From Psammoneis japonica (lineage: Eukaryota): DNA of 64,000 nt. Position numbers and translations under genes: made by a program. The stretch's first letter is position 1. Every line of letters begins with the position of its first letter. Location: positions 1-64,000 of the forward strand of contig QPGO01000195.1 in NCBI GenBank assembly GCA_008632985.1, written 5' to 3'. The notes under the pieces were generated by a model, which worked only from the letters and a program-made list of their open reading frames with translations, was not told the origin of the DNA and did no database searches. Positions 6,620 through 53,500 of this stretch are shown here, one piece after another.

Positions 6620-9600
6620 ACGTGAGTCCGCAAAAGAGAAGAACACGTCACCGAGCGAAGCCTCGGCCAGGGCCATGCCTTGCATGTGCGAGGTGCTGTG
6701 GAACCTCTCTGGCCACAGTGGGCCGTTCAGACGCTTGGCTCCAACTTGGTGCACCATCTCTCCATTCATGCAATCCGCTTTGCTTCCTCCCTTCCCACCG
6801 AATCCTCCCCATTCCCTCTGCCAAACGCCCTTCTTCACACTGTGTCATGTGCCCTTCCACACCTCCGCCACTGCCACACAGCTGCCTCCTCCTGCTGCTG
6901 CTCCTTTCCGCTTTGCACAGGCTTTTTGACTCTGCACTTGGTTTGATCGCTTGAAATTAAAACACAAAAAAGAGAGTGGCTTCAACGAAGGTGCCTTGTT
7001 TGTTGAACTTTTTTCTCTTGCAGGCTGAAGCCAGAGGCAAGAGGTCCTTGTTTTTTGGGCACAAGCCAAAGAGTGGCCTCCAACCGCCACACAAAACAAT
7101 GACGCAGCTGAAAAAATCATGCCAGCATTGACAGCACAGCTCTCTGAGGACAAAACAGGGAGCTTTGTTGATGCTCTCTAAACGTGCCATTCTCTCTCTT
7201 GAGGTCTTGGCTTCCCTTTGCCCCGGTGGCTTTTTTGTGCCCCAAAAAGGAAAAGCCAACAGCAGCATCACATCATTTGCAGCTGCAGCAGCAATTTTTG
7301 CACCCCAAGCAGAGGTGAAATTCTGGCACCTTCTTGAATTGCCCAAGGTTGTGCACCACTTTTCACTGTGACACAGCAAAGCACCAGAATGGGGAGGGGG
7401 GTTGACATCTTGGTGATGGAGGAGGGAGAGCACAAGAGAGCATGGGCAGCACAGCTTCTGAAAAGTTGCTGCTTCTGAGCCATGCTGCAGATGCCTGCAG
7501 ATTGTTGTGCTGCTTGCAGCAATGTGGCATGCCAGAGGAAGTGGCAAACAACATGAAAGGCCAGACACCTGTGGCTCTCAATGCACGCAGCTCACAAGAT
7601 TGCCAGCGAAGTTGCTGTGCAAATGATGGGCAATGACATCGCTGGTTCCAGCAATGGGTTCAAGCATGCCCATGTGCTGCAGCTCTCCTGCACTCATCAT
7701 TGTCTGCACAAAAAAGCTTTTGCTCCCACCTCAATCCTTTTGTCTTGTTTGTGTTCTTGTCCCTCATGCTCTCTTCTCTGGACTCTGCACTCTCCGGCTC
7801 TTCTGCAGTGGACTGGTCTCAACAGCACTGGGTTGTTTTTTTCACCGCACCATCAGCACCTCTGTCAAAATGTCATCTTTTTTGCTGGTTGTTGCATCTG
7901 ATGACAGTGAAATTTCTGTGACTGCCGCTTGCCAGGCATTTTCTTTCAACCACGTCTTCTTGTGAAGCAGCTTCTGCTTGCTCCACTGTGTCCATCCCTG
8001 TCACTTCTGTCAGAGCATGACCTTCTGAGGCATCCACTGCTTCTGCTTCTTCCACTGCCTCTTTTTCTGCCATGTTGGCAGCAGCTGCCTCAGTCACATC
8101 AGTTGCAGCATCAAAGTCTGCCAGCTCATTTGTGCTGTCCATCTCCTCTGCCATGTTGGTTTGCAGTCCTTCAAAATCAAAATGCTGCACAAGACAATGC
8201 AAGAAATGTCACAGCACACATGCAATGCACCACCAATGATGAATTTTTTTTGTGCTCACCTTCCCCCAGAGCATTGCCCTCTCAGCATCACCTTCATTCT
8301 GGGTTGCTTCCTCTCTTTTCCTTGCCCAATCTTTTTCCAACCTTTTCATGCTGGCAATCATGTGACACCCAGCTTCTTCTTCTCCAGCTGCTTGATGCTT
8401 GCATCTCTTGTTCACACTGTTGCTCTGCAGCTGCCATTTACACTGCTGTTGCCAGTGCAGCCAAAGAGCCACCGCAAATCTTTTTTGCCAACCCAACCTT
8501 GCAATTTCATTGCGTGGGTTCTGCTTCTCACATGCAGATGGGTTCCACAGTGCAACATGCCAGTTGAGCACCTGCTTGCTTCCATCATGCACCAAGTCCA
8601 ACAGACCCTGCTGCTTGGCAGCATTTGAAAATTGCTCTTGTGCTTCATGCAGGCCTTTTGCATTTCCACCAGCAACATCTCACATGACTTGGATTGGTCT
8701 GCCATGTGTTTGACCTGCTTAAAAAAATCTCGCTGCAGCTCCTGCAGTCATCTGCCTTGATGATGTGGGTTGCTGTCTGTCATGAATGCTGCCTTTAGAT
8801 TGCATTCATGACAGATCAGTGCTGCAACAAGAGGGCATTTTATGTGGAAGATGGGGACAAGGGAAAGAGTCTGTTTTTTGTCACTTCATTTGCAAGACAA
8901 GAGAAACAATGGATGCTGCTGCACAGAGTGATGCCGCAAGGAATGTGAGGGTGCTGACTTCAAACAAGTTCCTCTGCCAGGTTCAAAGTCATGGAACACT
9001 TGAACATGCCCAAGCAACCCATTGCATTTTCTGCAAAGGCAGCGTTGGATGAAACTGCTGATGACATTGTGTGAAAGTGCACTGCCAATGCCTGGGACAC
9101 ATGTCGATTGTTTCAGAATGGACTGTGGATGTGAAAAAGGCCCGAGCATCGTTCAAGTGATTGCCATGGATTTGGAGACCTGCATGTTCAACAAGCCTTT
9201 CCCAAATGGTCTGGCTGCTTTCCTTGAGTCACCTGCATTAAAAAAAAGGCACCAAACATTTCTGCTGACTGGCACAAGCTTGCTCACCTGGATTGGTGCA
9301 CTCAGTTGACAAATTGCACAAACCTTTTGCAAAGGGCAGTGGTGGGTCTCTCCAACATGTGCAAAGAACTGCTCAGATGAGGCCCAACAAAGACAACTGT
9401 CTTCACTTGTTTGATTGGAGAAGCTCAAGAGCTGGCAACAAGAAGCTCTGCCAACATGCCATCTGGACTTGCACACTCAAATGATGGCACATTTGAAAAT
9501 GGCAGCAATGCCACACCTGGATCTAAAAGCCAATCTTGCTCCTGCTTTGGGGGCACTCTTTGGCGTCACACCAGCTGATGTTCAAGCTGCAATGGCATCA

Positions 9601-12600
9601 CTCAACACTTTGAAGCAGCTGTTTGTGTGTGTTCAGAAAATGGGATGAAAGTCTCTGAAAGAAATTCTTGCAAGTGGCACATCTGAAACCTTTTGAGAGA
9701 TTTGAAATGTGAGAGTGGCCCCACCAAGTCAACTGAGCACATTCTTCCATGCATGCACTCAAAAGTTGCAAGGTTGAATTTCAGACTGTGACAACAGCAG
9801 TGGCGCCAAAGACCTTTCACCAGAAGCAGAGCTGCCATCTGATCTTGAGAATGACGATGGAGGGAGCATGATGGAGCTTTCAATGAGCAGGAGAGCGACA
9901 ATGATGAGGCCCAATGCCAGCACCAATGAAGCATTTTCATGCAAAACAAGACATCAAACACATGTTCATTGAACTTGGCAAGGTGCTCTCAAAAAACAAT
10001 GGCGCCTTTTGAGTCTTCATGGCATGGCTCTCAGATGCTTTCTTTGTGTCTCACCACCAATCTGACATCAAGTTTGTTGTCAAAGAAGAAGCATTGCTCA
10101 GAAGTGGCTCAACCAAAATGAAGTGAATGCACTGCACCTTGGCAACTCTTTGGAAAGAGAATTTGCTGTGCTGTCATGAGCTCAGAGGAGCCAGAACAAG
10201 ATTTCATGAACCTTGCAAACCTTGCCACCAGTGCTGCTGATGCAAAGACAAAAGAACCCTCTGTTTGGGAAGAAGGAGTGGAGTCTGTTCAAGGCAATGC
10301 TTTGGCACATGCAGAAAGGTTGTTTGAGCAACACACCTTTTGTGTCATCATGTCACATGATTGAAGTTGGATTTGATTCTTGTGGTGCACCTCTTTTCAA
10401 ACACTTTTGTGGAGCTGGTGCACTGGAAGGGCATCACCAGAAGGCAAGGCAGCTGCTGCAAGTGTTTGCCTGCTCAACATGCCTCATGATTGCACTGCTG
10501 TGCAAATTCATGCACAGATGGAATCTCATGACATGATTGATGCCCATGTTCTTGGACTGCCCCAACATCATGCCAACTGCTGTGATGGATGGGAAGTGGC
10601 AAAAGAAGCAGAAGTGCTGTTGACACATGGGATGAGTTGCCAGAGCCAGCCCATGCATTGGCTGAGCTTGTGGAAGACATTGCACAGACAAATGAAAAGT
10701 TCAGCACAGAAGGCACCCTCCAAGCCCATGATCTTAAAGCCAAAGTTGAGAAGCTTGTTGATGCCTTCAAAGATGGATGTCTTGATGCAAGATGAAGACA
10801 TTGTTGATGAATCTGAAGCAAAATTCCAAGAGCCCCTGCATTTGCCATGTGGGTTGCAAAGAATTTTGGTTGCAAATGAGGCACCAAACTGTTTGTGACA
10901 GAAATGGAAGCAGATTTTTTTGGCACTGTGCAAGTGGCCCAAACAAGGCCAGAGAGCAACACGAAGCAGACAATTTTTCATGCATTCAATGGGATGAGAC
11001 AGCAAGCTTTTGGACCCAGTGGGCAAAAGATGAAGATGATGGAAAGCAGCCAAGAAGCAACACAACTTGCAAAAATGTGTTCCACTTGATGGCTTGCTGG
11101 CAGGCACTGAAAAAAGGAAATGTGGTGGCCGCTGTCATTGGAATCAATGACACCAACACAGCCCTCTGAAGGGAGCCACAAGGGAAGAATTGCAGCACAA
11201 ATGCAAATTGCCGGTGCAGTGCAAAAGTGGCTGATGCAACTTGTGACCTGAAAGAACCCTCTGGAGAAGTTGAGACCTTTCCAAGTGATGGCACATTTCC
11301 AAATGACAACAGAAATTTGGACATTTTGATGCAGCTGTGGAAGCCTGACTGAACAAAGAGATGCAAAAGCAAGCAGGTGTCTCAGTGGCACCTTTTGTTG
11401 GTGTGCTGCCTCCTGGACATGCAGCAAGTGACCACACAACACCACTCACAACAGCTCCAGCAAGCTCATCTGCAAAGCAATCAAAGAAACCAAGTGGAGC
11501 CAAAACACAGAGCGCACATTGATCAACAGTTTTTTCCCTTTTTGCCCAGTGCCAGTGAGCCACCAGCTCCAGCACCACCTGTCTGGTGCTCCAGTGCTGC
11601 CTGGCAGCTGCCAAAATGACACCTGCTCTGGCCTTGCCCAGCACGGCTCCAAAGCTTGCACCATCATTTCAACACAGTGCATCATGGACACAAACTGCAA
11701 TGCAAGCAACAAGAAATGTGCAGTGTGAGCCAGAGAAAAATGGTGCAAAGCAGTTTTGGTCCATGTTTTGTTCCACATTGCCTGCATCTGGCCACTCCAG
11801 CCAACCACACCTGTCTGCTCCAATGCGGCCACCTGGCAACTGCTGCAACACCACCCAGCCACCACTCCTGCACCACCTGGCTGCTCCAATGCCGCCAACT
11901 TGTGCACCCCCTTCTCCAAGAATGCTGATGACTCCAGAGCTTGCACCCCCATTTCAACACAGTGTGGCAGAAAAAAATTGCAACACAAGTGTGGTGAGAA
12001 ACGTGCAGCAGTTGCAACAAACATGGAACAGATGAGAGGAGTTGAAAGATGGACCACCTCGTCCATCACAGACTCATGGCTTGATGTTTTCACAATGGCA
12101 AAGCATGGCAAAATTCAGGAAAAAGCGTGCAAATGATGAGCTGTTTGGCCAAATTTGAGGAGCCAAAAAATGGCAAACAATGACCCCCCTTCTTGAGGAT
12201 TGATTGGCAAATGGAGATCTTTTTTTTTTTTGAGCTCACAATTAAAAAAAAAAAACTGGATGCACCCCACCTCCCACCAAATGTGTGCAATGCCAAAAAT
12301 CAGTGATGGGTCAAACTTTGTCTGCTGGCAAGACATCACAGAATGACTGGATGACAGTTGTGTGGCTGTGCACAAGATGTTTGCAAAGGGCAAACAAGTT
12401 CTTCAAAGACAGGGTGAAGGACACCAAACAAGAGGTTGTGAATGGATGACTCAGCTGATGGGGGAAGTTGCACAGGATGATTCTGGAAAACCGAGAAAAA
12501 AGTGGAGGCAGGAGGACTCGACAAATCAAAAAATGACAAGAGTGACCACAGACCAGCACATGGGCAGTGAGCTGAGCCAAGGCATGCAATCTGGAGTTGA

Positions 12601-13640
12601 TGGTGGCTCAGTGGACAAAAAACAAATTGCAGCACTTGCACTGGCCAGTGGAAGACTGTGCGCCATTGACCCAATGCAGACAATGGATTGAAAATGAGTT
12701 GCGGCACTGCATCACAAACCAGTCATTCGAAAATGCCAGTCATTCAAAAATGCCAGTCAAGCAGCCAATCAATTCTCATCCAGCTGGCTGCAAACTTTTG
12801 ACAGAGTGGTTTGTGGGTGTCAACTTGCTGATTTGCACCAAACTTGTCTGTTCTTGATTTGCAAACTTGGACATGGTGTGATTTGTGACAAACCAAGCTG
12901 ATTTGTTTTGCAAATGAGCCCGTGTGCTCACACCCACATGCCTTTTCCAAGAATGCAGCCTGCTCATCAGCTGGCACAAGGTTTCCCCAATTTGGGCCCC
13001 CGACATGGAGGAAGAGCGCCGCCTGGCATCCTTGCACAATGAAAGGCCGTGGACAAGAAGCGCAAAAGCAGGCGAGCACACTCACGCAACAAACAAGAGG
13101 AAAAGCAGCTGTGGTGCTCACAGCAGGATTTGTGCACTGTGCCTGATGTTGATGCCAAGCTGCAAATAAAAAATTGGATGCACGAACATCTTGTGCCTGA
13201 GCAGCTGAAGATTGTGGCACAGCTGGCACATTGCCTCTGCCACTCTGACCAACTTTTCATGGGACAAACTGCTGTTTTCTGCAAATGCCAAAGCCAAAAT
13301 GACAGACAAGTGATCATGGCAGCATGACCCATGATGCTGCAGCAATTTGGTTCACTCCCAATGTTTGGGGCGGAGCTCCAGTCAGACAAGTGCTTGGCGG
13401 GTCATTGTGTGTCTCGCCTTGGCGCCAAACTCTCTCCGCTTCTGGGTTCACTTCGCGAAACGCGTCTTTGCAAAGTGCGCAAGTCCGTTCTTGTGTTTTG
13501 CACCATCGGTGTGACTTAAAATCTTTGTGGGTTTTTGATCCATGCTGCCTTCCTTTGTGTGGAAAGTTCTCAGCCGAGTGGTGGTGCGCACCGGCAGTGG
13601 GAGAAAAAAGGCGCGAAAATCGATCTTTCGATGTTTTCAC
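6620..13640. mobile_element. Hypermutated (TpA- and CpG-depleted) block 1: decayed repetitive or TE-derived DNA, family not identified
   Basis: No TA found by eye in 7201-8400 and only about 8 CG; strong TG/CA excess; overlapping Tyr-poor, Cys/His-rich spurious ORFs in all six frames. Confidence 0.7.
11560..11990. repeat. Degenerate direct repeat, period about 285 bp
   Basis: ccaaagcttgcaccatcatttcaacacagtg (11649) vs ccagagcttgcacccccatttcaacacagtg (11934), plus repeated ccacctg(t/g)ctgctcca motifs. Confidence 0.6.
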
Positions 13641-14027: not shown

Positions 14028-15451
14028 ATGGCGTCAGACGACCCGTACTGGGTATTCCCGTCTCTATTCCCATCAAGATCGAGGGGCAAAAGCTCAGACA
14101 CAGCTGCCAGCTCCGAATGTGAACTGGATGTGGGCGAAAGCGTCGAGATTGGGCTCGACGAGAGCGCAATAGTTGATGAAAGTGCAATGACCATGATGGA
14201 GAATGGAGGCGACTCAAGTGGTCATTTCAAGGACGGAAATGGAAAGAGATACGCCAAGAGACCAAGATGGAAGTTCTTACTCTTTCTTCTGTTCTTTTGT
14301 GCTGCTATAATAACCGCTTCGCTGCTGGGAACAAGGCTATCGAAGAACAGCAACTCTAGCAAATCCAGTGAAGGATCTCCCATCTCAAATGCAGAGCCGG
14401 CAGAAGAGGAAGAAGAGCAGGAAAGGGGAGAAGAGCACTCTTCTGGACCGGAACATTCCTCGAACAATACATTTCAGCATTCACCAACGAACCAACCGCA
14501 GCAACCTCAACCACCAACCGCAGCTCCAACGACAACGGTGACAAATACTCCCACATTCGCGAGAACGAATGCACCTTCTGCCTCACCCTCAAGTGCTCCC
14601 CTTACAAATTCACCCACAATACTAACCTTGGGCCCTCCGACAAACTTTCCTCCTACAAATCCGCCTAGTGTTGCCACAAATGAACCAACTCTTTTACCCA
14701 CAACAGAGCCGGAGAAGCAAACGACTGTGTCACCAACTACCGGTAAGCAGCAGACGAGTCCGCCAACTCTGCGACCAACACCGCAGCCGACAATGCTACC
14801 GACACCTTCACCCACACTTCCACTTACCGTGCTACCGACACCTTCTCCCACGCTTCCACTTACCGTGCTACCAACACCTTCTCCCACACCACCACCGACG
14901 TCAGCTCCAAAGATCCCAACGAGAGACGAGCAAATGTCGCCCAAGAACTGGTTAGAGGCGCACAATTCAAGACGGCGAAAGTTGTATGCCGAGAACAATG
15001 TACCAAATGTCGATTTAAAGTGGAGTGTCGGAGTGGCAGATAGCGCCTCGGCTTATGCGAAAAAACTCATCACGCTCGATGGCTGCACAATAAAGCACGG
15101 ATACGACAACGATCGATATGGTGGAGAGAATCTAGCATCACAATGGACGGGTAATCCTACCGGCGGGTTTGTCCCTGATAGATACTGGAGATGTGGTTTG
15201 ATAGAGAAGCCAACAATGGCTACTTTGAAAATCTGCACTATACGCAGGTGGGTTGGAGAGCGACACATTATGTTGGTTGTGCCGAAGCCACCAAGGAAAG
15301 CTCGGGCGGAACATGTCATATTTTCGTATGTCGCTACATTAAAGCGGGAAATTGCAACCTCCCCGATACCAATGAGGGAGTCATCCAAAAGATGCTCGCC
15401 GAAAGATCACCCTGTGGAGTGGACTGTCCTCCAGAGGGATGTGTCGATTGA
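14028..15451 (+). CDS. CAP/SCP (PR-1-like) domain protein with N-terminal TM anchor and Pro/Thr-rich stalk
   Basis: WLEAHNSRR, LKWS, YGGENLA, then after an apparent frameshift near 15180 HYTQVGWRATHYVGCA...VCRYIKAGNC; internal 36-bp PTPSPTLPLTVL repeats at about 14799-14890. Confidence 0.85.
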
Positions 15452-15960
15452 GACACTACTTGACCAACGTTTGCTCTTTGAGACATTTTTTACATTTTGT
15501 AATATTAGCTTTCAAAGTGTTGCTCCTGCAAAAGTGCACCACCGTTACAGCTTACGACTAGGCGCAGTGCAGGAGAGTAAATGCGAGCTGGTCGTGTCTG
15601 GGATTAGACCTACTGACTCTGTCGATATGCAGGATTCAACAAGCACTATAACGTATACTTCAAAAAGTGCTACTCTAGAGGTCGTGCTTAGATTGGCGAG
15701 TTTCTAGAGTAGCTGTACTTATTGCTCCCAATCCCTTTTGGTCATCATCGTCATTATTCCGTGTCGGCGGTCGTTGGTCAGACTTACCCAATTCAGTCAT
15801 GTTTTGATCTAATCCGCGACCACGAGTAGCGTCAGCATGATGACGTTGGTTGTTGCGTTCACCTTTCTCATTTTTTATCGACGTCGTTGACACTGCGACC
15901 TTGCTGATTTTCTCATTCCCAACAGGATAGATGCAAATAAACTGAGAGGACTACCTTGAA

Positions 15961-18135: not shown

Positions 18136-18192
18136 TATCTGTTGTTGCTAAAATAAATAGATTTGTACAGTGTGTTTCTACTTTAATTTCGT

Positions 18193-19131
18193 TCAAACCC
18201 GAGCAATGTGTGCTCTAGCCTTTCTACTATCATATGATGAATCTGAGCCGTCTAACGACGAAATCTCGTCCACGAAATTATCAACGGAAGAATCCATGAG
18301 AGATATCTCGTCCATGACCCCGTCGTTGTCAAATGCGCTTGCGAGTTCGTCTTGGAACGCGTTTTTCTTACTTTTTCGCTTTTGATTTCTTTTTCGTATC
18401 TCCATTGCACGTTGCGACCTCTGTTTGTCCAGATTCTGCTGCTGCTCAAGCTGGTTTCGCCGTCTTCGTCCCTCCATGCTCATCTCACAAAAGATGTTAC
18501 AAATACATATAAAGAGAACCGCAACAACAAGGATGACCCAAGAATGCGTAACAGCCGGAGACTCTGTCGGCTTTACCCAAATTTCAACCTCAAACGGAGT
18601 CGTCACATTGACCAAAAGGAACCGGTCCGTTATGTTGGCGCCGCGGGCATGGTGTTTGCTCCCGGCCTGTTTCTTTCGTTCGTTAACTTTATGTAGTATT
18701 GCCTCTCCTTGAGCGACAAGTAGAATTTTCTTCCTTGTCGGCATTATCTTTGTAACAAACTTGGATTCCAATCTTGTTCGAACGACACAAGCCCGACCCT
18801 CGCAGGTATACCACGTTTTGCTATCCATAGGACTGCCATCGACTATCCGATTTAACTCTGCAGCATTTCCTTTTAGACTAAGACTGGAGACTTGGTCAAT
18901 TTGAATCTCCTCTTGAGAAGTTTCAAAGCAAAGAAACAACTCGGTTTGAAGGGTCATGAGGGCTTCAACATCTTGAATACATGTGTTCGTCAAATCACAC
19001 CGACAGACTGACATATGGTACCGATCCCCTTCATTACGTAGCCTGCGTCGGTGTTCATTCTCTTCATCGTTATTATCATCGACAGAGACAAATGGTGAAT
19101 TTAGTTCTTTCTCGTGGCTTGATGAATCCAT
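18193..19131 (-). CDS. Hypothetical membrane protein
   Basis: 312-aa ORF with normal dinucleotide content and one TM (WVILVVAVLFICICNIFC). Confidence 0.55.
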   Translation of the reverse strand: MDSSSHEKELNSPFVSVDDNNDEENEHRRRLRNEGDRYHMSVCRCDLTNTCIQDVEALMTLQTELFLCFETSQEEIQIDQVSSLSLKGNAAELNRIVDGSPMDSKTWYTCEGRACVVRTRLESKFVTKIMPTRKKILLVAQGEAILHKVNERKKQAGSKHHARGANITDRFLLVNVTTPFEVEIWVKPTESPAVTHSWVILVVAVLFICICNIFCEMSMEGRRRRNQLEQQQNLDKQRSQRAMEIRKRNQKRKSKKNAFQDELASAFDNDGVMDEISLMDSSVDNFVDEISSLDGSDSSYDSRKARAHIARV

Positions 19132-37500: not shown

Positions 37501-37949
37501 AGAGAGCCTTGTCATTTTCTTTTTCACACACCACTCAAAAAGTTTGATTGCCAACCCTTGGGAAAGCTGTGTTCTGCCAGCCCTGGCAAGATTGTCTGCT
37601 GCAGCACTTGTGTTGCTTGTTGCTGCAGTGCTGCTGCTGCCAGCAACACTGGGAATGGCTTTGCCACACCCAAAGACCAGCAATGAGCAAACTGCAGACC
37701 GGCAGTCAAAGCTGAGACAGGAGACACACACAAAGTTCTGCCACAGGAGCATGTTGTGCAGAAGACACTTGCTGAGAGTTGCTTCACCTTTCAAAGCAAA
37801 AGACTGGCTCCCCTGTTGTGGCCCCATCTCTTGGGTTTGTCCATCTTCGCTTTTGATTGTGCATGACAATTGGTGGTGCAAAAGGTCATGATGACATGGC
37901 TTCTCACCACAGCTCACATCCCCCCAGCAACATGTCTTGGATGAACCAG

Positions 37950-38950: not shown

Positions 38951-39469
38951 TCAGCTGACTTTGCTCTTTAGAAAAAAGCCTCTTCCCGAGCACATGATGT
39001 GCTGGCCTTTGCCTTGGAGTGACGGCTTTCCAGGCTGGAATTCAGATTGACCCATTGGAACGACAGACAATCTTCTTTCTTGCAAATTGCACCAAAATCA
39101 ATTGTGTCGGATCGAATTTGTGGGGCAACCAAAGCCATCTCCATTCTGAGGTTCCGTTTTTGAGCAAGATCAAAAAGAGACTGAATCACACAACGTCTCC
39201 ACTGTTCTGTCACAACACTGAATTGGGCAATGTGTCATCCGCCTGCAAATTGGCGTGATGTTCGCGCTGGGGTGACGTGCTTCCATCATGGCACGAATGG
39301 CTGTCCAGCGACACAGCAGATGCGTTGTCACTCTCCTCTGGCTGATCAGCCACAGCAATTTCCATCCCATCAGCAGTCTCATCCAAGTTTCTGCGACGGG
39401 TCATTTGCTCCAAGCATTCAAATTGCGCTGCATCTTGTTCCCAGTCGTGGTCATCTTCAGCAATGGCAG

Positions 39470-40900: not shown

Positions 40901-41589
40901 GCAGCTGCCTTGACCATTTGTTGACGCAATTGCATCCCTCGCCGGATTGAAGGACTTTTTTTCTGTTGACTGCGTGTCTGCAACGGTGGACTTTCAACTT
41001 AACTTGCCAGTGGAGGATGCGAGGACCTGCTCTTCTCACAACTGCACCAACTCCCCATCTTGCAGCACTGCCTTGTCTCATGACCTCACTTTCGACGACT
41101 TTGATGTCAAGCAAAGAAGATGTTGTTGTTGCTGTTGTTCTGTTGTTCTTGATGTTTCAGTGCTCAGCGCCGCTCGGTGCTTGGTGCATGTTGCAGAACA
41201 ACTCCAAGTCATGAGTCTTAAATCATGTCCCGTGTGACCCTCTCGACTCGAATGCTTTGGAAGTTTTGGCCAGACTTTGACCACCTGTGTCTTGCGAGAC
41301 GGCAACAGGCATGTGTTGTTCATGGCATCTGGCACTTCAAAAAAGAATTGACTTTTTGAGGAGCCCCTTCATTGCACGGACAAGTGTGAGAGTCAATTTT
41401 CAGTGATTGGTCAGCTGACGTTCACACTTGTTGCTTCACCCCCCCCCCCCCCCACTCTGCTGGGCCCCACCCCACATGTGTGCTGAACTTCGCATCTGTG
41501 TGCTGTCAGTGTCCATCAAAATGGGTGTTTGGTTTTAAAAATGGGAGGCTGATTTTTGCACATGGCGTCACAGAGCTGGGATGGAAAGC

Positions 41590-42730
41590 AGCTTCCTCTG
41601 TCTTGTTGTTCAACAGATTGACCATTGCTTTTGCCTGCCCGCCCAGCAAGGCGCTTGTTGTCCCGCTTTAAAAGAACATGCATCGGCGCACTCACAGTGG
41701 TGGTGGATTCCACCCAAGAGGGGAGCTCCAGTGACATGCACAAATGGCTCCATTGGAACAAAGCTTGCACAGTTATCCACGACAGTTGCAAAGCCCTGCA
41801 ACGCTTCTCTCACAGCATTTGTGCCATCGCAACCTGGCCTGGCCCCATGCAATTCAATGCGCGCATGCCTGGTTCTCCAACAATGGCAGGCAAGTCCAAA
41901 ATGTTCAGTTCCTTCCTGATGTCACCCAACAAATTGATGAGATTGGACTCACACCCCTTGACACATGGCCAAGGAGGCAGGATCATTCCACCCTTGAAGC
42001 CACACAAGCCCCTCTCAACTTCACAAGAGCCACTGTCACTGGCAGGAGGCAAACAGGTCCTGATGTTTTTGAGTGCTTTGTTGACTTCATCCACCATTTT
42101 ACAATGGCCCCATCCACAGTGGCTTGGCTCAATGCCTTCAAAGTCTCTCTGCCCAGAGCTGGGAGGCCCAAAGTCAACAGCCAGAGTGCAGCTTCTTCCA
42201 AATGCAGCATTGATGAGAAAGACAGTCTCATTGGCACATTGACTGCCAAGCACCCATTCAAAAAGCAACTCTGGCCCAAAGCAACCTTGTGCTGCAAAGC
42301 CCTTGTTTGCCATCAATTGTCCTCCCTGCATGTCCTCAAACTTGACACAGACATTTTCTCACACCTTGTGTGCTTCTCCCAAAGTTTCGCTCCACAGAGC
42401 ATCAGACTGGTGCATGTTGTGAGAGGACAAGAGCAATTCTGCACCAACAAGTCCAGGTGTTTCATGTTGCCCATGCCAACCACATTGGACTGTCCAGCCA
42501 AAACAAGTGCACAGATCAGTTTTGTGCCATTGTCATGAATGTCAGGGATTTGAGGCCAGCATCTGCAAAGCTGACAGCAAAGGAGATGAGGAGCAAAATC
42601 AAACACAATCCAGGCATGATGAAACACACAGAAAGACACACTCTGAAGTCACAACAGTGGCAACAGGCTGCCATTGTCATGTGCCCCAGCAAGTTCAAAG
42701 CACCAAAGCAAAGATCATGCTGCAAGACTG
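41590..42730 (-). pseudogene. Hypermutated duplicate of the SASA esterase gene at 33457-34536
   Basis: Colinear with about 33550-34640 in the same orientation; LAGQSNVVGMGNMKHLD, FGPELLF and LPAIVGE preserved; Tyr->Cys/His changes, frameshifts. Confidence 0.92.
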
Positions 42731-44897
42731 AAAAGATTGTGAAAAAATTGAAGATTCCTGTGCCAAAGAAAAGATCATGCTGCAAGAATGAAAGACAGTG
42801 AAAAAAGACACTTTGAAATTTTGATCATGTCATCTGCACTTTTCTTCCCTGATGCCCCACCAAGGCCACATCACAAATCATCACTCATCACATCCAGAAG
42901 GCATTGTGCCAATCTCACACTGGCATCTCATCTCTTGTGATGTGCCCAGCTGACATCTCAGATGGAGAAAAGTGGGAGGATCAAGTGAGGCAAACAAAAA
43001 AGAAGATCATCAAGTGTGAAAAAAAAGGACAACTTGATCATGCTTGCTTTGAAGTTTGAGCTCTCCACATGTGAGACCTGATTCTTTCACAGAGAGGTCA
43101 CCTCTCTTTCATGTTAAAACCCCATCTCCATTGCTTTGCTTCACACTGGCCCCACCAGGAAAAGAAGAAGAGCCAGGTCATCACTGTGATGATGTCAATG
43201 ACTTGCAAAGCAGCACACGGAGCTGCCGCCACTGCAGAGCTCCGTTCTTTGACCAAGTTGCTGCAGAGAAGAACATGAAGTTGATGAAACAGAGCTTGTG
43301 AAGAATCATGAAAGAAGAAAGTGTTGCTGATGCAGAGAAAGGGGGAAGGAGTGATGAAGCAAAAATTAAAAACTGGTTTGTGCAGCCTGCCTGTTGTGGG
43401 AGCTTGTTGCTCAAAAGCAGTTGATGCCCACATCATCAGGCACCATGTGACAGAACTGAAAAATGTCAACCAAGGCACTCACAGGGTCAAAAGCATCTTT
43501 CATGTTCCAAAGTCTTGGCAAGGTGGTTTTGGCAAATTTCAACTGGAAGCACTGACCGCCCATGGATGCCATGTGGTTTTCATCATCATTTTGTGAGCTT
43601 GAGCACACTTTGCCTGTGACAACAATTGCAAGGACTGTGCACCACACATGTGCTCACCCATTGGAAAATTGTGGGTTGACCCCAAGTTTCCCCCCCATTT
43701 GTTTTGTGACAGTCTCTTTGTCATGATGGCAAGCATCAATGGAGAGAGCAGCACTCAGTGCCAGCCTGATGGAGTGGACTCTGCTGCCAAAATAAAAAAG
43801 ATGTAAAGCTTCTTGCTGTTGTCTGAACACAACACCGCATTGCAGTTCAGGGAATTTTCCCAGGCCTGATTGTGGGCTGTGGCACGTGTTTCTTCCTCAG
43901 AAGTCACTGTTTTGCAAATGGCTCAGCAGGATCACCAGACTCTCAAGGCCAGCCACAAGTGTGTTTTTATTGCATGCCCCACATCTTTGTTTGCTCTTTT
44001 GGCTCAACTTTGTCGCGGCACCTCATGTGGAACGTGGAGTGTGGTTGAAGGAAGAAGCTGCTGCTCAATTTCTGGGTCAAAATTGATGTGTGGCACTTTG
44101 ACACAAAGCAGACAAGGCAGCCAACAAGAGCAAGGAGGAGCTTGGAAAAATGGCAATGTCCATCAAAAGATTCTTCAAAAGCAGCAAAAGAGAGCTTGGT
44201 GCCATTTGGGGCTTTCTGACCGACAAGAGCCTCTCAAGACGGAAACCAAGAAGGCCGCCAGTGCAGTCAATCCAGACATGGCAGAGGAGCAAGCTGGGGA
44301 ATGTGAGTGTTGATGGCACTGAGGGCACACCAGGTATAGTCAGAAGTAGACAGACAGAAGCCCTCCGAAAGTGATCAACAAATGACAGCATAAAAAAAAT
44401 GAAGCATCCGGACAGGTGACTGCTGGCTACCGTAAGACTGCCGGTAGAGCTCTAGAGCCACTGCGACTCTAGAAGCAGCTAGTCAGCAAGAGCCATCAGC
44501 TAGGAAGCAACCTGTTGTAGAACAAAGATGAGGACTGCTTGTAAACACTTTGAACTGGCAGTGTGGAACATTGCAGTGGGTTCGGGATGAATGACTCGGA
44601 CTGAAATGGAAAAGCTGCCATGCCGAAAATATCTCAAGCATGCAACAAAGGTTTCATCACGACTTATCAATATATCACTAGGGCCCTAGCGTTTAAAATA
44701 AGAGGGTCGCCGCCCCATGTCATGCAACAAGCTTAAAAGAATTGAATGCTCATAAGATATAAGATCATCTACACAGCAGGTGATATCGAGAATGCATGCG
44801 TAGTTCCTATCCATGAGAACCATCGCAAAAGGATCGCTACTAACAACCCAAAGTGTTCCGTTCGAATCGGCAATATACATTCATACCTCTTCAAGCT

Positions 44898-45387
44898 TCA
44901 AGGCTGCATGTGGTAGTCCGGATTCTCCTTCATGAATTGTTCTCGCATTTTCTGCAAGCGCCTTTGCTTTAGATCTTCAACCATTTTTGGAAGCTGAAAA
45001 GTCCGCCTTTTCGACAAGTGATGTGGTGCGTGATGAAAAATAAGAAGCGAAATGCCAAACAGTATGGCCAGGATGACAGGTAAGCAAAAAATCTGCAGAA
45101 AAGCAAAGACAAGAATCCGTGAATGAGCGACAAAAGAATGCAGGAGGTTTGAGACTGCGTAATGGAAAAAGAGTTACACTCACCTCTCCCCACGTTTTCG
45201 GTTGATCCCGAGTTTCTTCTGGTCCATAAGCTAGTAAGTCAGATACCGATGGAAGTTGTTTTCGTTGCTTGTAGCGTGGTTTCCGTTCTTCTTCTGAAGT
45301 TCTCTCGACGACGTCGACATCGGTGCTTCTTTTCTTTCCACCACGCTGCCTCAACGAGGTCGTATTTTGATTACTACTTGTAGACAT
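44898..45387 (-). CDS. Small hypothetical single-TM protein, 2 exons
   Basis: MSTSSNQ...PKTWGE | IFCLPVILAILFGISLLIFHH...YHMQP*; GT-AG intron 45183-45093 in frame; normal TA/CG content. Confidence 0.7.
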
Positions 45388-45535
45388 AGCTCGTTTTGAA
45401 GATGTAGTGTGTGTGTATGAGTCAGCCGCCAAAGTGGTTCAACGTCCGCGACGCCATTGGACCAGAGTCACCGCAGTCACCACTCCCGGCTTGGGAGGTC
45501 TGTAATTGGTACGGGAAGAAGAGGAAGAGAAAGAC

Positions 45536-48500
45536 CTCCCACGGATCGTTACATTTTTTTCAGTACTGAGCTAATCTGGCCAGTTAACAAAAATCAAAAA
45601 GTGGAGAACGACTTACAGACCAAATTTTTGTACCAGCCTCTACACATTTTTCTCGTAGACACCATGGCGCTGTTGCGTCGTTTGCACCGTCGTCGTCGCG
45701 TCTTTCTATGGGGTGAGTTATGCACAAGATTCATCTTCTTTGTCCATGTCATGTGTACGCGTTGACCCAGTCTCGACAAGTGCCGTGCGTGTTACAAAAT
45801 GTGTCGTCGACTGAAGCGGTGTGATGACTCGTTAAATTTGTCATCCTCTAACTTTGTTTCTTTTATTTTACCTTCTTTTTTTGTTTGCACTCCAATGTAC
45901 AGCATTTTCTTGTTAAAACACAGGCATGAGTAAGGGGTGACAGAGTATGAGGCGAGTTGTCAACCTTGCAACAAGCGTTTGTGGTCGTCACATCATCTGA
46001 TGGCATGTTCTTTCTTTGTTTTTCGACTGGCCGTTCCTTTGACTTCTTTCGCTCTTGTGGCATCTGCGCTTACCCCTTGTTCTGCCTTGTCTTTCGACAC
46101 GTCAACATCACTTGATGCGGAAACAAAATTGAAGCCTTTCAAGTTGACACAAGGCTTCTCTTTGTTGCCTCTGCATTTGGAAGGCCTGGGAATGACGCTC
46201 ACCAACGCGAGCGCTCTGAGACTCGGGCTCATTCTGGATTTGTGGACAAGGCACCCCTTCATGTTCTTTGCCTTGTTCCTGCGGAAGGTTTCAACAGCAT
46301 GTGTGTCCATTCCAAGGGATTCGAGACTGACTGAATCGTTCCCTGCAGGGTGTTTCCGCACCGAGTTCATCACAGACAGCACACGACAGCCTTCCTTTCT
46401 TCTCGGTGTGGAACCGGTTGTTGACAGATGAGCACAAGCTTTTCGAGAAATTTCATTTCCAATGATGTCTACTTTCAGCAAGTGCCTTTTGGAAGCTGTG
46501 CCAAGAAGCATCTGATTGGCACTTGGGCGATCCGTTCTTGTCGGCTCTCCAAGAATGCTCAATTGTTTGTCTTGTCTGCTTCGTTTTGCCTTCAGATCGA
46601 TCGGCATTGCAGCGGCATTGAAGCAACTGAGAGAATGTCAGCTGCAGAATTAGCAACTCACAATCCTGGGCTGTTGCATTTCTTGTTCCATTGTAGATGA
46701 TTCCTCCCTCAACCATGTCTTCATCTGTGTCCACGCTAAATTCATCAGATGTGTCCGACAAGGCAGCTCCATCGTCGTCGGAGATAGACGATGACGACTC
46801 GCTCGCGACAGCGCCCACTGCACTCGAAGCGACATGTGCCGAGTTGTGGGAGACGGCTGAGCATTCCACATCACTCTCGCACCAGCAGTCACTTTCGTCA
46901 TGAGACGGGTGTGTGCTTTCGACAATGCTCGTCGCACCTTTGCTGCGGTCGCTTGGGCAAGAGCTGCAGCAGCTTGAGTCTTGCAAGCTGTCAGTTGCAA
47001 CACAGTTGGAATCCTCGTCAGATTCTTGGCGCATCACCCATTCATGGCACTCACTCATGTCTGTCAAGGGAGTTCCACCGGCAACATTCAAACGCGCACC
47101 CTTTACCCTGCTCTTTGCTTGAAAGTCCTCTGCTTCCATTTTGCAAACATTCGCAAACATGGCAATGTCGAGGCTCTGTCTTCCCAAATCGCACACAACC
47201 TGGGCAGCCCGGTGCATGTTGCGTGCGTTTTCACAGAGATCGCGTCTGTCTGACGGAGTTGTTCTCTTGGTCTGCTTCTTTGACCTGACAAGCTCTCTGT
47301 GTGTGGCAAGACACTTGCGCATGAGGCCCAAGAAGAATGACCTTCAAGTGAGTCCGTCTTGGTCCGTGGGGAGCGTGTCGCCTGCCTTCAAAAATTTGTT
47401 TCCTTTCTCACAAAGATCGTCCATTGCCATGCCATGCTTTCCTTCATTCATCTTGACAGTGTGGTTGATGAATTCTTCCAGCAATTCTGTGGGAGTCATG
47501 CTGGACGCCACCTCCATCCAAGAGAAGCATGGATTGACGTACTTGGGCTTTCCCGACGTCTGGAAGAGAGGCATGCTCTCGATTAGAATCTTGCACAGGG
47601 TGACCGAATCCGAGTGTTTTGCACTTGAGTCGTGAAGTGGGAGAAGATCAGCAGCTTTGACAAGCAGCGCGTGAAATTGCAGAACTGCGTCCGTCTTGCA
47701 TTTGCTTTGTTGGTCTAGGAACTCTTGAAATCTTTTACCGAAATGAAGGATTTGTTCCAATTCAAGTTCACACTCCTCCGTCGCAGAGTCAATGGCAGCT
47801 TTCCCTTCGGGTTCCGACACGAAACGTTCCAGGAAAAGCAGCTTAAGTTCGCCCTGGCCCATCTTGAGAAGCTCTTTTGCTGCATGAACATCCGATTTAA
47901 TTGGGTCCGCGGTGATGCGTTTCATCCCAAGCATCTCCTTCAACGGCTTCAGGTTGCAGTTGTGGCCAAGCGGAAGATTGCTTCTAAAAGGTGGAAGCCA
48001 ACATGGAGGTCTCCGTGCATTGGTGTCAATGTTTCGCAGGCTGCGAGAAGAGCGTCTTCATCGCTGGCGTGCGAGCCATCCAGGATTGCTTTTTCACAAA
48101 GATCTGCGATGCACTTGTGCACTCCTTCAATGGTTTTCCAGTCTCCGCAAGTGTGTGTCTTCATGTGCGGCAATCGTGCAGTCTTCGTCAACTTCCCACA
48201 ATCGTCCTCCTCCAACGTCTTTGTAAGTGCAAAGAGCTCCCGCAGGTGTTCTCGAAGCCCATCGGCCCTTGTCTCTGCATGGTGTTAGAGTTCTGGCCAC
48301 ACCCACAGCGATTTCTTTTTTGCGTGGCGGTTCCATGTGCCGACCATGCGACTGTGCTCATCAGCCAAGTCGGGTCCAGCAACGTCAATTTTGGAACTCC
48401 ACCAGTCGACCGCCCTACGTTGAGATTCCGTCATGACACGGTTGCGGTTGCCTGGTGCAATGCGCTGTCGAACCAGGTTTTCTTTCAAAAAACTGCATTG

Positions 48501-50905
48501 AAACACAGCCTTGACACGTCGACAACACTCATCTGGTGGGGATTCCATTCCTGGAAGCCTTGGGATTTCTTGAGTGCTGTCTCCAGCAAAACGAGGATGC
48601 GACTCAAGGGACGGAGACTGATGCAGTGTCCATCCGTCCAATGGAAGGGTGACCAGCATCGTCTCTCCCGCTTTCACTTGTTTTTCTTTTGATGATTTTG
48701 AGGTTGGCACACAGCATGCCTGTCTCGCTTTCAACAGGCACAACATCTGGCAGTGGTCCTCCGTTGCGGGCACGCTTTCGACTGCTTCGAACAGTGAGTC
48801 TCTTCTTCAAAGTGAAGACTTCGATGTGCCATGACGTCGCCCGCTGTCCATTTGTAGAGACGCCGTTTCAAGTGTGCTGTCATTGTTCTGTGAACCGGAA
48901 TCGATGATCGACCACCACGCTGAAATGCCATGTGCCGAAAGAACTGAAAATTGTCGAAAATCAACGTGAGCACCGAGTCTTCAAGGATGCCATCGCGCTG
49001 CAACTCTCGAAACCTTTGGTGGTTGTCTTTCATCCATGTTGACGCTTTGGATTTGTCAACCTGAAGGCCCATGTGGCTTGCCATTTCGTCATTTCCCTTT
49101 CCGCAAGCCATTGACCCAAGTCGCAGAACAAGCGCAAGGTTCGACAGACTGTGGGCATTCCTCATCCTGAGGATCATGAGGCACATTGCAAAGCAACGTG
49201 CATGTTTTAGCCCCTTGCACTTTTTTTGTTTCTTTGTGTGTGGTGCCTCGGCGACGTCGGTCCACGCCCACAGCAGAGGGCACGTTTCTTGAAGATCTCG
49301 CATCGTGTCAGACAGGGACAACAGCGGCTGGTCAAAGTCGTCCCACCCATTCTGGTGGATGTTTTCAACACGTTCTCCAATCTGCTCATCAAGTCTTTCC
49401 GCCCATTCTTTTCCTTTTAAGATCGGGACGTCTGCAGGATCAATCTCGTCGGCCTGACAATTAGACGATGTGGAATCAATGTCAAATTCTCCCAATTGTG
49501 CCTCAATGCTTTAGCCACCCATGCAAGTCGAATCATTTCATGTGAGTCTCCACACCTCCCTTTCCAGCTGTTGGATTATGGGAACGAGTTGTGCCAATGG
49601 GTGAATGATTTGGGTCTTGCTCTTTGCGTTCCCGTGCATGAGTTTCCCAAGGCCCGACATGTTGGCAAGTGATGACAGTCCCTTTCTTGACCTGCTCGCG
49701 TTTTGTCCCACAACTCAACGTTGCCCATGAACACATCATAGAATTTTACTTCATGACAAAGTCGTTTGGCTGTGTCCTCGCCCGTGACGACCACAGTGAG
49801 GGCGTCACCTCGATTGTGAAAACCTTTGATGATGTCATCCTTGTCTGTGTTGTCCTTGGCAAGCGTCTCTCCTGTTAGATTGGACATCACAGTGCAGTGC
49901 ACCACGGTGCATGTTTCATCGCCACGTTTGAGTGCATGTGGCCCGGTCTCGGGCAATCCAAATCTGGACGGAGAGAAATCTCGGCCGCTGCCAACAACGA
50001 GCACCGTGTCACCTGTGCATTTCAAAAAGGCCTCTTCCATCAGCAGGCGCCTCAAATTGTTCGCATTGCCGTCTTCATCAAACAAAGCCTGACAATGGCG
50101 CAAATTGAATGGTGTGTCAGCACCTTTCTTCAAACCTTCGCCTTTTGTCTGAGTGCCTCGTGTCAACATGCCAGTTGACTTCCTCGACTTGCGAGGAGCG
50201 CGTTTCTTTTTTGAGAAACCACCATTTGGAGCAAAAGTGGAGAGCCGATCAACGCACTCATCATGACTGCTTGCAACCAAGGCCAACCTTCTCATCTCTT
50301 CCGCACTCTTTTCACCTGCCCCAGTGGTCAAAGATTTCGCATCTACATGCGCCGTTTTTCCCATGCTGTCGGTGCACTTGACCGTTGTCTGGAGACAATG
50401 GAAAGAATAAAAGTGGCCTTCTTCATCACGCCTGTCAATTGACTTTCCTCGTGAAAGAGATGAACCCATGTCATGTGCACTGTGCCGGCACTGCGTGTGA
50501 TTCTAAAGGATGATGTGCTGTGCTTAAGGTAAAATTATAAAGATTGTTATCGTGCACTCGTTCGCTGCCGGTGCACTCGAAGTCTCGCTGAGTCAGCTTC
50601 GACGAACAATTCTGAGTCGGGCTTCCAAGACATCTTTTGGATCTTTGAGATCCGATTCTCACATGACACAGGTGAGCGCCTTGCATTGTGTGAAAGTTGA
50701 CGAAATCCGGTTCAAACAATGCCCTGGTAATGCATGATGCAAATAAATGAGCATCCGCCATGGTCTGCATGCATGCAGTGCGTGCATCGCATCGGCGGGA
50801 GGTGGAGGGAGCTTTGTACCAAGTCTAGTAGAATTTTACGCGCCACGTAGAAATCGCGTAGAAAAATTAACTGGCCAGACTGAAAAGTGCAACGCTCCGT
50901 GGGAG
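45536..50905 (-). mobile_element. About 5.4-kb terminal-inverted-repeat element carrying a fragmented DUF6589-like gene
   Basis: Left end CTCCCACGGATCGTTACATTTTTTTCAG...TCTGGCCAGTTAA (45536-45587); reverse complement of right end CTCCCACGGAGCGTTGCACTTTTCAGTCTGGCCAGTTAA (50867-50905); interior TA-depleted. Confidence 0.7.
46450..50469 (-). pseudogene. Fragmented large ORF, DUF6589-like putative transposase
   Basis: Successive minus-strand fragments: LIFDNFQ..R...QRGGRSS, PMHGDLHVGFHLLEAI, FQTSGKPKYV, MAMDDLCEKGNKFLK (resembles the xPxDLxxEHxNxxxK motif). Confidence 0.5.
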
Positions 50906-50970
50906 TGCGGTAAAGATTTCATGCTCGTGGCTGGTTAACGATAAGCCCATAGCCCAATCTCTTTGTCTGA

Positions 50971-51102
50971 CTTCGAGCCAAAGTAAGCTAAATGGTTAGT
51001 GTAAATCGTTAAGTGTCATTTCCACTTCGACACAAAGAAAGCTAAATGGTTAGTGTAAATCGTTAAGTGTCATTTCCACTTCCATACAAAGACAGCTAAA
51101 TG
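50971..51102. repeat. 54-bp tandem repeat, about 2.4 copies
   Basis: agctaaatggttagtgtaaatcgttaagtgtcatttccacttc at 50986 and 51040; partial third copy at 51094. Confidence 0.9.
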
Positions 51103-51549
51103 CTTAACGGTAGTGGTCAGATTTCAAAATCTGAGCAATACAGAAATGTCAATGATGAATAAGGATTTTAGATTGCTTCTGCCGTAAATATCATTACGCC
51201 AATGCCACTAATGAATACACAAATGAATTTGTATTCCATCCTTTTCCTGAACTTTGATCTATCGGCATTTTCGATACGAGTACTCGACGCGATGACAACA
51301 ATGAGGCATGCTTGTATGTGTCATGGCCATAAGCTGTGAGGCGTACCGTCACATTTGGATTGAACTCGGGGATCTTGATGTCGAAAGTAGCCATTTGTTT
51401 GACATTCGTGATTTTTCATCGCCCACAAACTGGGATTTCAACTGAGTCGAGTTGATGTTGGACGTGTTTCAAAGCACTGCATTTGATGAAACAATTGAGG
51501 GCTCTGGAATTATGGCATTTTATGCCATGGAGACTTAAAACAGTACATG

Positions 51550-53500
51550 GGTTGACAATCAAGCAGTGATCGGGTTTGCCAACATTTCCAAAAATGTGAC
51601 AACAAAAATTGCATCACTCAACAACCAACAACATCTCAAGAGATGGAAACAAGAAAAGTGACTCCTCTTTGCACTTGAATTAAAAGAGACAACAATGCAC
51701 AACAAACATTTGAGAAGGACAAGAAGCTCTTGAATGCATGGAACCAGAAGAGAGTCAATGAATCGCTCTTGTTTTGAACCTCTTGACCTGTTCTGTCCAT
51801 GATGGTGGTTGGTTGAAAGGTCGGTGGTGGTTTTTTTATGTGACTTGCAGCTTGAGGCATGTTGATGCATGAACACATGGCCCATGTGTGGTGTCACCTT
51901 TGGAAAGTGCCACTTGTGGAGCTTGAGTGGACAACTCTCTGTGCCAAGCTTTGTCCGCCAAATGCTCCGTCAAAGTCCAGATGCTGCCACATCCCACCCG
52001 ACCATTGACACAAAACAGTTCTTGCAAAATGTTGTTGCCTGTTTCCCTCTTCCTCTGCAGAGCAGCCCTCTTGGTGACAGTGCTGCCCACATGCCAGAAT
52101 GTGCTCAAGAATGCTTTCCATTTTGCCAGCAAAGATGCCCAGCGCGGGGCTGTGTGGGCTCGAATCTCTCTCAAGACAAGCTGACATTTGTGCCTGGCAC
52201 TGGCGGCAATGCTGAGCCCTCCTTCCTGTTTGACTTCCCAGGAGTGTGCCCAGATCTCCTGCATGCTGAGTGGCTCAACCACAAGAGTCGCTGTCTTTGT
52301 CAGTTTTGTCAGCAGGATGTGCCAAGGCTGCTCTGGCCATGTGTGCGCAAGGACAGCTGCGACAGCGCTTTCTGCTGTCAGCAAAGAGTGTGAGCTGGCT
52401 GGACTGCCCAACCCCACACTTCACAGCTCCTTGGCAGTCACCCCAAATCAAGTGCCAACTTGGGGTCAACCGCACCTGGCTGGTTGCAATGCAAAGACAG
52501 CTGTGGCAGCACTTTGTGACAACAAAGAGAGTGCGAGCTGGCTGGGCTCCCAACCCCACACTTCACAGCCCCTCAGCACTGGCTCCCAATCAAATGCCAG
52601 CTTGGGGCCAACGGCTGTGAAGCCATCATTGCAAATCCCTGTGCCTGCCCCCTCACACAGCTTTGCACAGGGTCAACATGTGTGGCCTTTGCAAGATGGG
52701 CCCTGGCTGGCTGCTGGCTCCTCACCCACACGGCTTGCACAACAAGCCACCACAACACAGAGCACTGTGGGGTGAGTGCAGCACAGCCCAAACAAGCACA
52801 CCATGCTGAGATCACCCAGAGTTGGCTGCTGTCCTGGGGCTCCATTCAAAGCTAAGCTGGGCTGCTTGGCTCCTTGGTGTGCAGCACATGCTTGGCATCA
52901 CATTCTCTTGTTGCCAAGCAGCCGCATGGCATGTGCCCACCATTTGTGCCTGCAACAGCGACCCCAGCCACAAAGAAGCCAACAAAAAGTTGAACCTGGT
53001 TTTGTGGTTGAAGAGTGAAGAAACTGTGAGTGAAGTTTGGTTCAAGATTTGTTGGCAATGCCAAGTGGGCAACCAAAGAGAGGCGCCAAAAATGGCTGTT
53101 TTCTTGCTCATTTCTCAAGAGGAGCTTGCGCTCATGATGCAGGGTCTGAAGCAAGCACCAGCCAAGACAACAGTTTTTTTTTCTCTCTGCCCCACTTAAA
53201 ACACAGCCTTTGAGTCAATGTGGTGCTCCTTCAACAACTCACGCACACTGGGAAGAGCAGCTGGAGCCAGGGCAGCTGGCCTGGCAGGGCTTGGCTGACA
53301 CCCAAGCTGGGCTGCTCAGCCTGGTGGCACACACTCAGTGCCACATTGTCACCCTCCTGCAACTGCAATGTGCCCCCACTCTTTGCACCTGCAGCAACCA
53401 CCCTGGATCAAAAGAAGCCAGTGCAACTCTGGCCATGGTTGCATGGTCAATTGTGTGTGTGTGTTCAACGGTTGATTCCCCTCTTTTTTTCTCTTTTCCT
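51550..53500. mobile_element. Hypermutated block 5, family unidentified, with an internal repeat of period about 143 bp
   Basis: TA and CG depleted; gagctggctgg...cccaaccccacacttcacagc at 52392 and 52535. Confidence 0.65.

Follow-up and report, generated by a model that had tools for sequence, protein, structure and literature searches.

Hypermutation aimed at the dinucleotide TpA has been reported once before, in a preprint on a single rhizarian alga, Bigelowiella natans, where it strikes silent integrated viral DNA (Mettrop et al., bioRxiv 10.64898/2026.01.13.699255, 14 Apr 2026). According to that preprint, two silent viral regions mutated in mutation-accumulation lines at ~6 × 10^-7 per site per generation, a de novo rate ~1000 times the genome background; of the 231 new mutations in these hot regions, 230 were A>G or T>C, all reported on TpA. 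It also describes 124 TpA-depleted, CpA+TpG-enriched clusters in the B. natans genome as well as 324 coding sequences with a TpA frequency of 0.0018, and proposes an ADAT2-like deaminase; neither CpG nor diatoms are mentioned in it (10.64898/2026.01.13.699255). This was the only relevant paper that our literature search brought up, and the search yielded no account of diatoms losing TpA.

Here we analyse 64,000 nucleotides of Psammoneis japonica DNA (assembly GCA_008632985.1, contig QPGO01000195.1, positions 1 to 64,000 of the forward strand; hereafter the window), in which five sharply bounded blocks have lost almost all TA and much of their CG to TG and CA. With a probability of roughly 0.75, we read these blocks as the product of a region-targeted A:T→G:C hypermutation at 5'-TA that favours TAC and TAT, is strand-symmetric and independent from site to site, and on which methyl-CpG decay is superimposed. 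This is probably the same kind of process as the one measured directly in B. natans, and by analogy the block signature is best filed as a further case of the recently described TpA hypermutation, in another lineage. A preliminary description of this DNA had stated that no described system behaves in this way, a statement that is superseded by the preprint, which reports both TpA-only A:T→G:C hypermutation and TpA-depleted clusters (10.64898/2026.01.13.699255).

Composition of the TA-depleted blocks

The block limits were placed by TA-free runs and are defined to within tens of bases, with ordinary DNA beyond. Block 1 (6621-13516, 6,896 bp) holds 11 TA and 76 CG, block 2 (21503-28833, 7,331 bp) 14 TA and 116 CG, block 3 (34821-44334, 9,514 bp) 26 TA and 159 CG, and block 5 (51838-53501, 1,664 bp), which contains direct repeats, 2 TA and 21 CG. 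Block 4 (46072-50344) has 25 TA where ~172 are expected and 219 CG where ~235 are expected. Sub-blocks that retain CG lie inside block 2 (~25250-27000) and block 3 (~38820-41570). Pooled, the five blocks comprise 29,678 bp with 78 TA (observed/expected ratio, O/E, 0.04), 591 CG (O/E 0.33), 3184 TG (O/E 1.75) and 3233 CA (O/E 1.71), while the remaining 34,322 bp of flanks contain 1379 TA (O/E 0.57) and 1891 CG (O/E 1.00); from the flank frequencies, ~1,193 TA and ~1,635 CG would be expected in the blocks. At the scale of 500-bp windows, TA O/E is 0.00-0.17 in the blocks with one exception (0.22, window 47501) and TG+CA O/E is 1.2-2.2, compared to 0.33-0.91 for TA and ~1 for CG in the flanks. 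The longest TA-free run measures 1,508 bp (10735-12243) and has, by our own arithmetic, a probability of ~e^-62 given the TA frequency of the flanks. The depletion signature is real, extreme and far beyond chance. The counts confirm the five TA-poor, TG/CA-rich blocks of the preliminary description, with limits near its coordinates, and the sliding-window comparison it had suggested gives, within the window, a far lower TA O/E in blocks than in flanks. Its remark that a scan of GC content would miss the signal is borne out as well, at 0.494 in the blocks and 0.469 in the flanks.

The fraction of pyrimidine-purine (YpR) steps is 0.2388 in the blocks and 0.2391 in the flanks. TA+CG falls from 0.0953 in the flanks to 0.0225 in the blocks, a deficit of 0.0728, and TG+CA rises from 0.1438 to 0.2163, an excess of 0.0725. 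An unchanged YpR fraction together with a matching deficit and excess is as expected for host-like DNA that underwent TA→TG/CA and CG→TG/CA changes only.

Neither repeat-induced point mutation (RIP) of fungi nor plain decay of 5-methylcytosine (5mC) can explain the loss of TA, as had been argued from the start, since RIP creates TpA and CpG decay leaves TA alone. The blocks do resemble RIP in that dense, sharply bounded transitions inactivate non-genic or duplicated DNA, which is degraded past recognition by similarity searches. However, RIP changes C to T mostly at CpA and thus makes TpA, whereas in the blocks TA is depleted to an O/E of 0.04 and CA enriched to 1.71. Diatom repeats carry CG methylation, and the CG→TG/CA changes in most block DNA look like methyl-CpG decay, with other C contexts little affected in the gene pair described below. 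Yet such decay cannot remove TA, and it covers a smaller area here than the TA loss.

As in B. natans (10.64898/2026.01.13.699255), TpA in the blocks gives way to TpG or CpA whichever strand is hit, the changes are regionally confined and a long-term footprint of TpA depletion with CpA+TpG enrichment results; in both cases many affected sequences are degraded and unannotatable. The host, however, is a rhizarian there and a diatom-like stramenopile here, and the depletion is near-saturated here (O/E 0.04), compared to a Rho of 0.45 in an insert of a nucleocytoplasmic large DNA virus there. Targets in B. natans are viral DNA, whereas the assignable ones in the window are pseudogenes of diatom families, and for two of these families viral_contigs yielded no relative. 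Furthermore, mutation in B. natans is A:T→G:C only, while CG→TG/CA is also massive in the window (46 of 53 sites in the gene pair below), and a de novo rate was measured there, whereas here the process is read from its sequence footprint.

Mutational origin of the TA and CG loss

Three gene copies inside the blocks could be compared with unmutated relatives. The first is a hypermutated copy of a neighbouring SASA esterase gene, located in block 3 (41588-42751, minus strand). The intact host gene (PF03629; 33457-34731, minus strand), whose start codon is separated from block 3 on that block's left side by ~90 bp, served as unmutated reference; it is an open reading frame (ORF) with ordinary TA and CG, situated 7 kb from the mutated copy. 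Both share 78.8% nucleotide identity, and 92.5% in purine/pyrimidine code. Among the 33 TA of the intact gene, 28 read CA or TG in the block copy and one is retained, while 46 of its 53 CG read CA or TG and two are retained. Thus, where intact copies as TA-poor as the blocks had been feared, the intact paralogue has ordinary TA. As this paralogue is unmutated, duplication alone does not attract the process, and the earlier claim of a repeat-targeted mechanism is not supported. This is a further difference from RIP, which mutates both duplicate copies, whereas here only the block copy is mutated.

The second case is a pseudogene of a diatom family of ~520-aa Ser/Thr-kinase-like proteins (25649-27201, minus strand), located in the CG-retaining sub-block of block 2, its frame shifted once near 26878 and interrupted by three in-frame TGA; members of this family that are named in the sources come from Amphora, Attheya and Bacillariaceae. 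Scored at 314 columns conserved among 10 homologues, the pseudogene has Cys or His at seven of eight conserved Tyr positions and Gln, His, Cys or a TGA stop at nine of 17 conserved Arg positions. Compared with the DNA of another diatom's intact gene, it retains one of 58 TA, with 37 turned into TG or CA, and 31 of 95 CG, with 42 turned into TG or CA. The third copy belongs to an uncharacterised ~500-aa family (39213-40713, minus strand; CG-retaining sub-block of block 3) and contains two frameshifts and one TGA. Its best representative is 59% identical to the pseudogene, and all three conserved Tyr are replaced by His or Cys. For this family, Pfam at E<=1 gave scattered chance matches only and no solved relative was found; a suspected HNH-like motif was dropped.

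These polarised comparisons bear out the mutational origin that the preliminary description had assumed and indicate that TA→TG/CA and CG→TG/CA arose by mutation of DNA of ordinary composition, not by inheritance of an unusual one. An origin of the blocks from foreign or mobile DNA already poor in TA on its arrival is in our view extremely improbable: although most block DNA is unassignable and relatives were not detected elsewhere in the window, the three in-block copies descend from TA- and CG-bearing genes, which contradicts this idea for these segments, and the mass balance equals host composition. In addition, TG↔CA swaps distinguish other copies of the block sequences. In contigs of a sequencing run (X1), six adjacent swaps of this kind were found among the 40 differences listed for such copies, which points to ancestral TA or CG having been resolved independently from copy to copy.

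Read data and other copies

The X1 contigs, at ~61x word depth, contain 97% of the sampled words from 30001-40000 and deviate from the blocks at 0-4 positions per 0.8-2.6 kb, with no difference in the SASA copy. Hence, a check for reads that show TA at the block sites found the TA-free sequence reproduced. X1 may be derived from the source sample of the assembly, so that this agreement shows only that the reads agree, and the possible identity of both samples is what favours the view that modified DNA caused errors in sequencing or base calling. We consider such an artefact hardly credible. The agreement at ~61x word depth speaks against it, as do the frameshifts, indels and ~11% other divergence that the block copies also carry, and the signature recurs in three separate metagenome assemblies of another diatom. 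Moreover, a base that polymerases read as G would turn into G in the cell, too.

Word depth in X1 reaches 1.6-2.7 times that of single-copy DNA in the left part of block 3, and block 4 is multi-copy at its left end. In block 3 DNA of unique depth, four of nine differences between X1 and the window, among those listed, are CG↔TG/CA, and CG decay in the CG-retaining part of this block looks ongoing.

Two further observations concern block edges. A high-copy repeat at 45342-46675 spans the left edge of block 4, with X1 word depths of 976 and 448 compared to ~61 elsewhere; its TA content is ordinary left of ~45950 and gone right of 46072, and its other copies show TG↔CA swaps. At the left edge of block 3, 100 bases at 34726-34827 are replaced by 23 other letters in an X1 contig of depth 55, which may represent a second haplotype or a structural variant.

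The signature in a second diatom

Metagenome contigs of another diatom, taken from three assemblies (L001-L003) that are 99.6-99.8% identical to each other with very few single-nucleotide polymorphisms among them, contain an intact kinase-like gene with 113 TA in 2,500 bp (O/E 0.67). The DNA adjoining this gene has nine TA in 1,354 bp (O/E 0.11). In this TA-depleted DNA, TG/CA O/E is 1.60 and CG O/E 0.51, and the YpR fraction is unchanged (0.242 vs 0.236). The same sharply bounded signature is therefore present in a second, environmental diatom.

In L001 (2001-4900), TA-depleted DNA lies on both sides of the kinase-like gene, whose own TA is normal, while in L002 (1-2500) and L003 (1-2650) the gene adjoins one such flank. 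The family may tend to land in TA-depleted regions, or it may be mobile.

Strand symmetry and sequence context

The changes affect both strands alike, as TG (3184) and CA (3233) are almost equally frequent in the blocks. Along the SASA copy, 74 events form 36 runs of the two outcomes, while 36.2 ± 4.1 are expected (runs test). This random alternation makes long single-strand tracts and editing at the RNA level unlikely. That transcripts were edited in an ADAR-like manner and then reverse-transcribed into edited retrocopies has next to no plausibility on these grounds, since a mark on one strand would be expected instead of interleaved outcomes at near-equal frequency, and since the TA-free state spans whole intergenic blocks including their CG-rich edges. 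What such editing would explain is the context, as the 5'-U preference of ADARs resembles TA, a point also raised in the Discussion of the B. natans preprint (10.64898/2026.01.13.699255).

Sequence context influences which TA survive. Of the 78 TA that survive, 26 belong to TTAA, where survival is 0.44, followed by CTAA/TTAG with 0.21, while survivors number 0 of 215 at ATAC/GTAT, 0 of 101 at ATAT, 1 of 96 at GTAC and 1 of 75 at CTAG. Among 65 polarised events, the base 3' of the changed A is C in 31 and T in 23. Where the two As of a TA have differing 3' neighbours, the one followed by a pyrimidine is favoured over the one followed by a purine (23 vs 6), so that the 3' neighbours of the changed A rank C > T > G, A. 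TadA and ADAT enzymes recognise U33-A34-C35 in the anticodon loop of their tRNA substrate. This 5'-T/U-A-C context of TadA, ADAT2-ADAT3 and TadA-derived base editors is matched by the preferred site in the blocks, TAC and then TAT. However, natural ADATs act on tRNA, whereas the footprint described here lies in DNA.

The context also bears on error-prone repair, be it Pol-eta-like WA→WG patch repair or biased mismatch correction in heterochromatin, which would act on both strands and need no new enzyme. AA is undepleted (O/E 1.25 in the blocks vs 1.17 in the flanks), in line with the earlier impression that AA is not visibly reduced, and this disfavours a Pol-eta WA signature. Within the SASA pair, AA/TT became AG/CT at 11 of 155 sites, compared to 28 of 33 TA changed. 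Near-complete conversion and the contrast of TAC/TAT with TTAA resemble substrate recognition, and although a slight excess of A:T→G:C changes outside TpA in the SASA pair could fit, we regard repair as the cause as quite improbable.

Separability of TA loss and CG loss

The preliminary description had CpG erased in all five blocks by a process that also removes TpA. CG is not lost everywhere, however: block 4, two sub-blocks and some edges keep theirs. Block 4 retains 93% of CG and 14.5% of TA, corresponding to losses of 7% and 85%, whereas the older-looking blocks lost 93-97% of TA and 70-80% of CG. CG remains at ~60-95% of flank density where TA is gone in the sub-blocks at ~25250-27000 and ~38820-41570 and in the leftmost 250 bp of blocks 1 and 3; in block 1, the first ~200 bp and the last ~250 bp retain CG with TA absent. 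No convincing periodicity was found among the surviving CG, with a maximum power of 3.2-8.0 across 32 periods. By our own arithmetic, the ratio of ln survival of TA to ln survival of CG in block 4 is ~27, which would imply that TA is lost at least ~27 times faster than CG, assuming first-order decays and a methylated block 4. TA loss and CG loss are thus separable in space and apparently in time, which is at odds with one joint process. Because of this separability CG→TG/CA is probably a second process, and a fast TpA-specific hypermutation and ordinary methyl-CpG decay probably act on overlapping territory.

A single agent for both changes is conceivable but unlikely. Candidates are an ADAT2/3-type DNA deaminase that acts on both A and C, and the oxidation of 5-methylpyrimidines, namely T in TpA and 5mC in CpG, to formyl bases that mispair; CG would be spared only where it is unmethylated. 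The boundaries of TA and CG loss are mostly common and sharp, TpA and CpG, which both give way to TG/CA, are each a palindromic YpR step, and ADAT2 enzymes acting on A and C in DNA are cited in the B. natans preprint (10.64898/2026.01.13.699255). On the other hand, the 4.3 kb of block 4 and the block edges lost TA with CG essentially intact, and the CG part is explained by methyl-CpG decay alone, which is established knowledge. In B. natans, hypermutation is confined to A:T→G:C, and the u(GC>AT) given for the hot regions is close to zero (10.64898/2026.01.13.699255). We likewise hold it for unlikely that a single chromatin-guided editor of both YpR steps in silenced diatom DNA, whether a dual deaminase or a 5-methylpyrimidine oxidase, represents an ancient, mutagenic and repetition-independent genome defence of the whole Stramenopiles-Alveolata-Rhizaria (SAR) group, shared with chlorarachniophytes.

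Proposed mechanism

Under the preferred reading, fast TpA hypermutation with methyl-CpG decay superimposed, the blocks would be silent intergenic islands of decayed gene copies and low-copy repeats among host genes. There, a region-targeted process would act on single sites of both strands and turn nearly every TpA into TpG or CpA. Chemically, adenine in 5'-T-A, best with C or T on its 3' side, may be deaminated to hypoxanthine, which would be copied as G. Slower ordinary deamination of methylated CpG would hit the greater part of this DNA, though not the whole, so that hypermutation and methyl-CpG decay together would yield the joint loss of TA and CG. The signature, its mutational origin and polarity, its strand symmetry, its flanking-base preference and its partial independence from CG loss are read directly from the sequences; we infer which enzyme acts, which chromatin or methylation cue would set the boundaries, and how the rates of both processes compare.

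Several points weigh against this reading. The frames scanned revealed no transposon or viral domain, and relatives of the kinase-like and the ~500-aa families were not found in viral_contigs; as the targets in B. natans are viral, the targeting cue may differ here. Run X1, possibly the assembly's own sample, may not count as independent support. In the SASA pair, 47 A:T→G:C changes outside TpA face 30 G:C→A:T changes outside CpG (the latter in ~1,070 aligned sites), a modest excess, so that TpA specificity is strong, yet may fall short of absolute. The CG retention of block 4 could reflect a lack of methylation rather than youth. Finally, that silencing guides the process and that a deaminase carries it out is deduced from the footprint.

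Content and surroundings of the blocks

The blocks occupy whole intergenic spaces between host genes, and the confinement of the signature to sharply bounded, silent-looking blocks stands as first described. Their designation as blocks of transposable elements, in which every recognisable element is mobile, is not supported. Recognisable content consists of the three diatom-family pseudogenes (SASA esterase, kinase-like and ~500-aa family) and some repeated DNA. No Pfam family was matched in 21 stop-masked frames, namely six each of blocks 1-3 and the minus frames of block 4, a scan of poor sensitivity that missed even the SASA copy. Likewise, Pfam gave no family in the ORFs 39829-40713, 37954-38814, 47991-48692 and 25715-26704. 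In block 4, ORF 48731-49495 had no homologue in a search among longer proteins only, and ORF 49576-50469 none in a search at near lengths. One block 4 ORF resembles hypothetical clusters of Basidiomycota (atlas match 0.95), with DUF6589 on 29% of one cluster's members, which may be taken as a lead only. Apart from the SASA pair, comparison of the window with itself, both ordinary and purine/pyrimidine-recoded, revealed three short tandem repeats and nothing else, and Rfam gave no matches.

Short direct repeats occur at 50970-51122, 52345-52612 and 52881-53450, with offsets of ~54, 144 and 443 bp, the last two within block 5. Just beyond several block edges, clusters of CTAGAG, GCTAG and GGGCCCTA-like words are found (34755-34822, 44430-44505, 21350-21365, 44680-44692) in otherwise ordinary DNA, where they may stand for boundaries, for promoters or for nothing. 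A second run (X2), recorded as 'DNA?', behaves like RNA, with spliced joints and coverage on host genes only; its missing coverage in the blocks is not evidence on block expression. Its contigs skip 97 bases at 32073-32171 (plus strand) and 91 bases at 45092-45184 (minus strand), both with GT..AG ends, and thereby reveal two host-gene introns. Long host ORFs without a Pfam family lie at 14028-15707 (559 aa), 3484-4527 (347 aa), 18193-19131 (312 aa) and 19986-21167 (393 aa).

Implications

TpA hypermutation destroys Tyr codons as well as TAA and TAG stops and conceals the origin of the affected DNA from domain searches. As even the SASA copy remained without a Pfam match, the annotation of repeats and pseudogenes would be biased in such genomes. 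A natural DNA adenine editor acting at 5'-TAY would also interest developers of base editors. If the process is true for this diatom-like genome and for the environmental diatom, the system would span at least two supergroup-level branches of SAR, and such a spread, if true, would allow the enzyme to be sought by comparing gene content across lineages. Diatoms are transformable, and the editor, the chromatin cue and a role in silencing would thus be directly testable in them.

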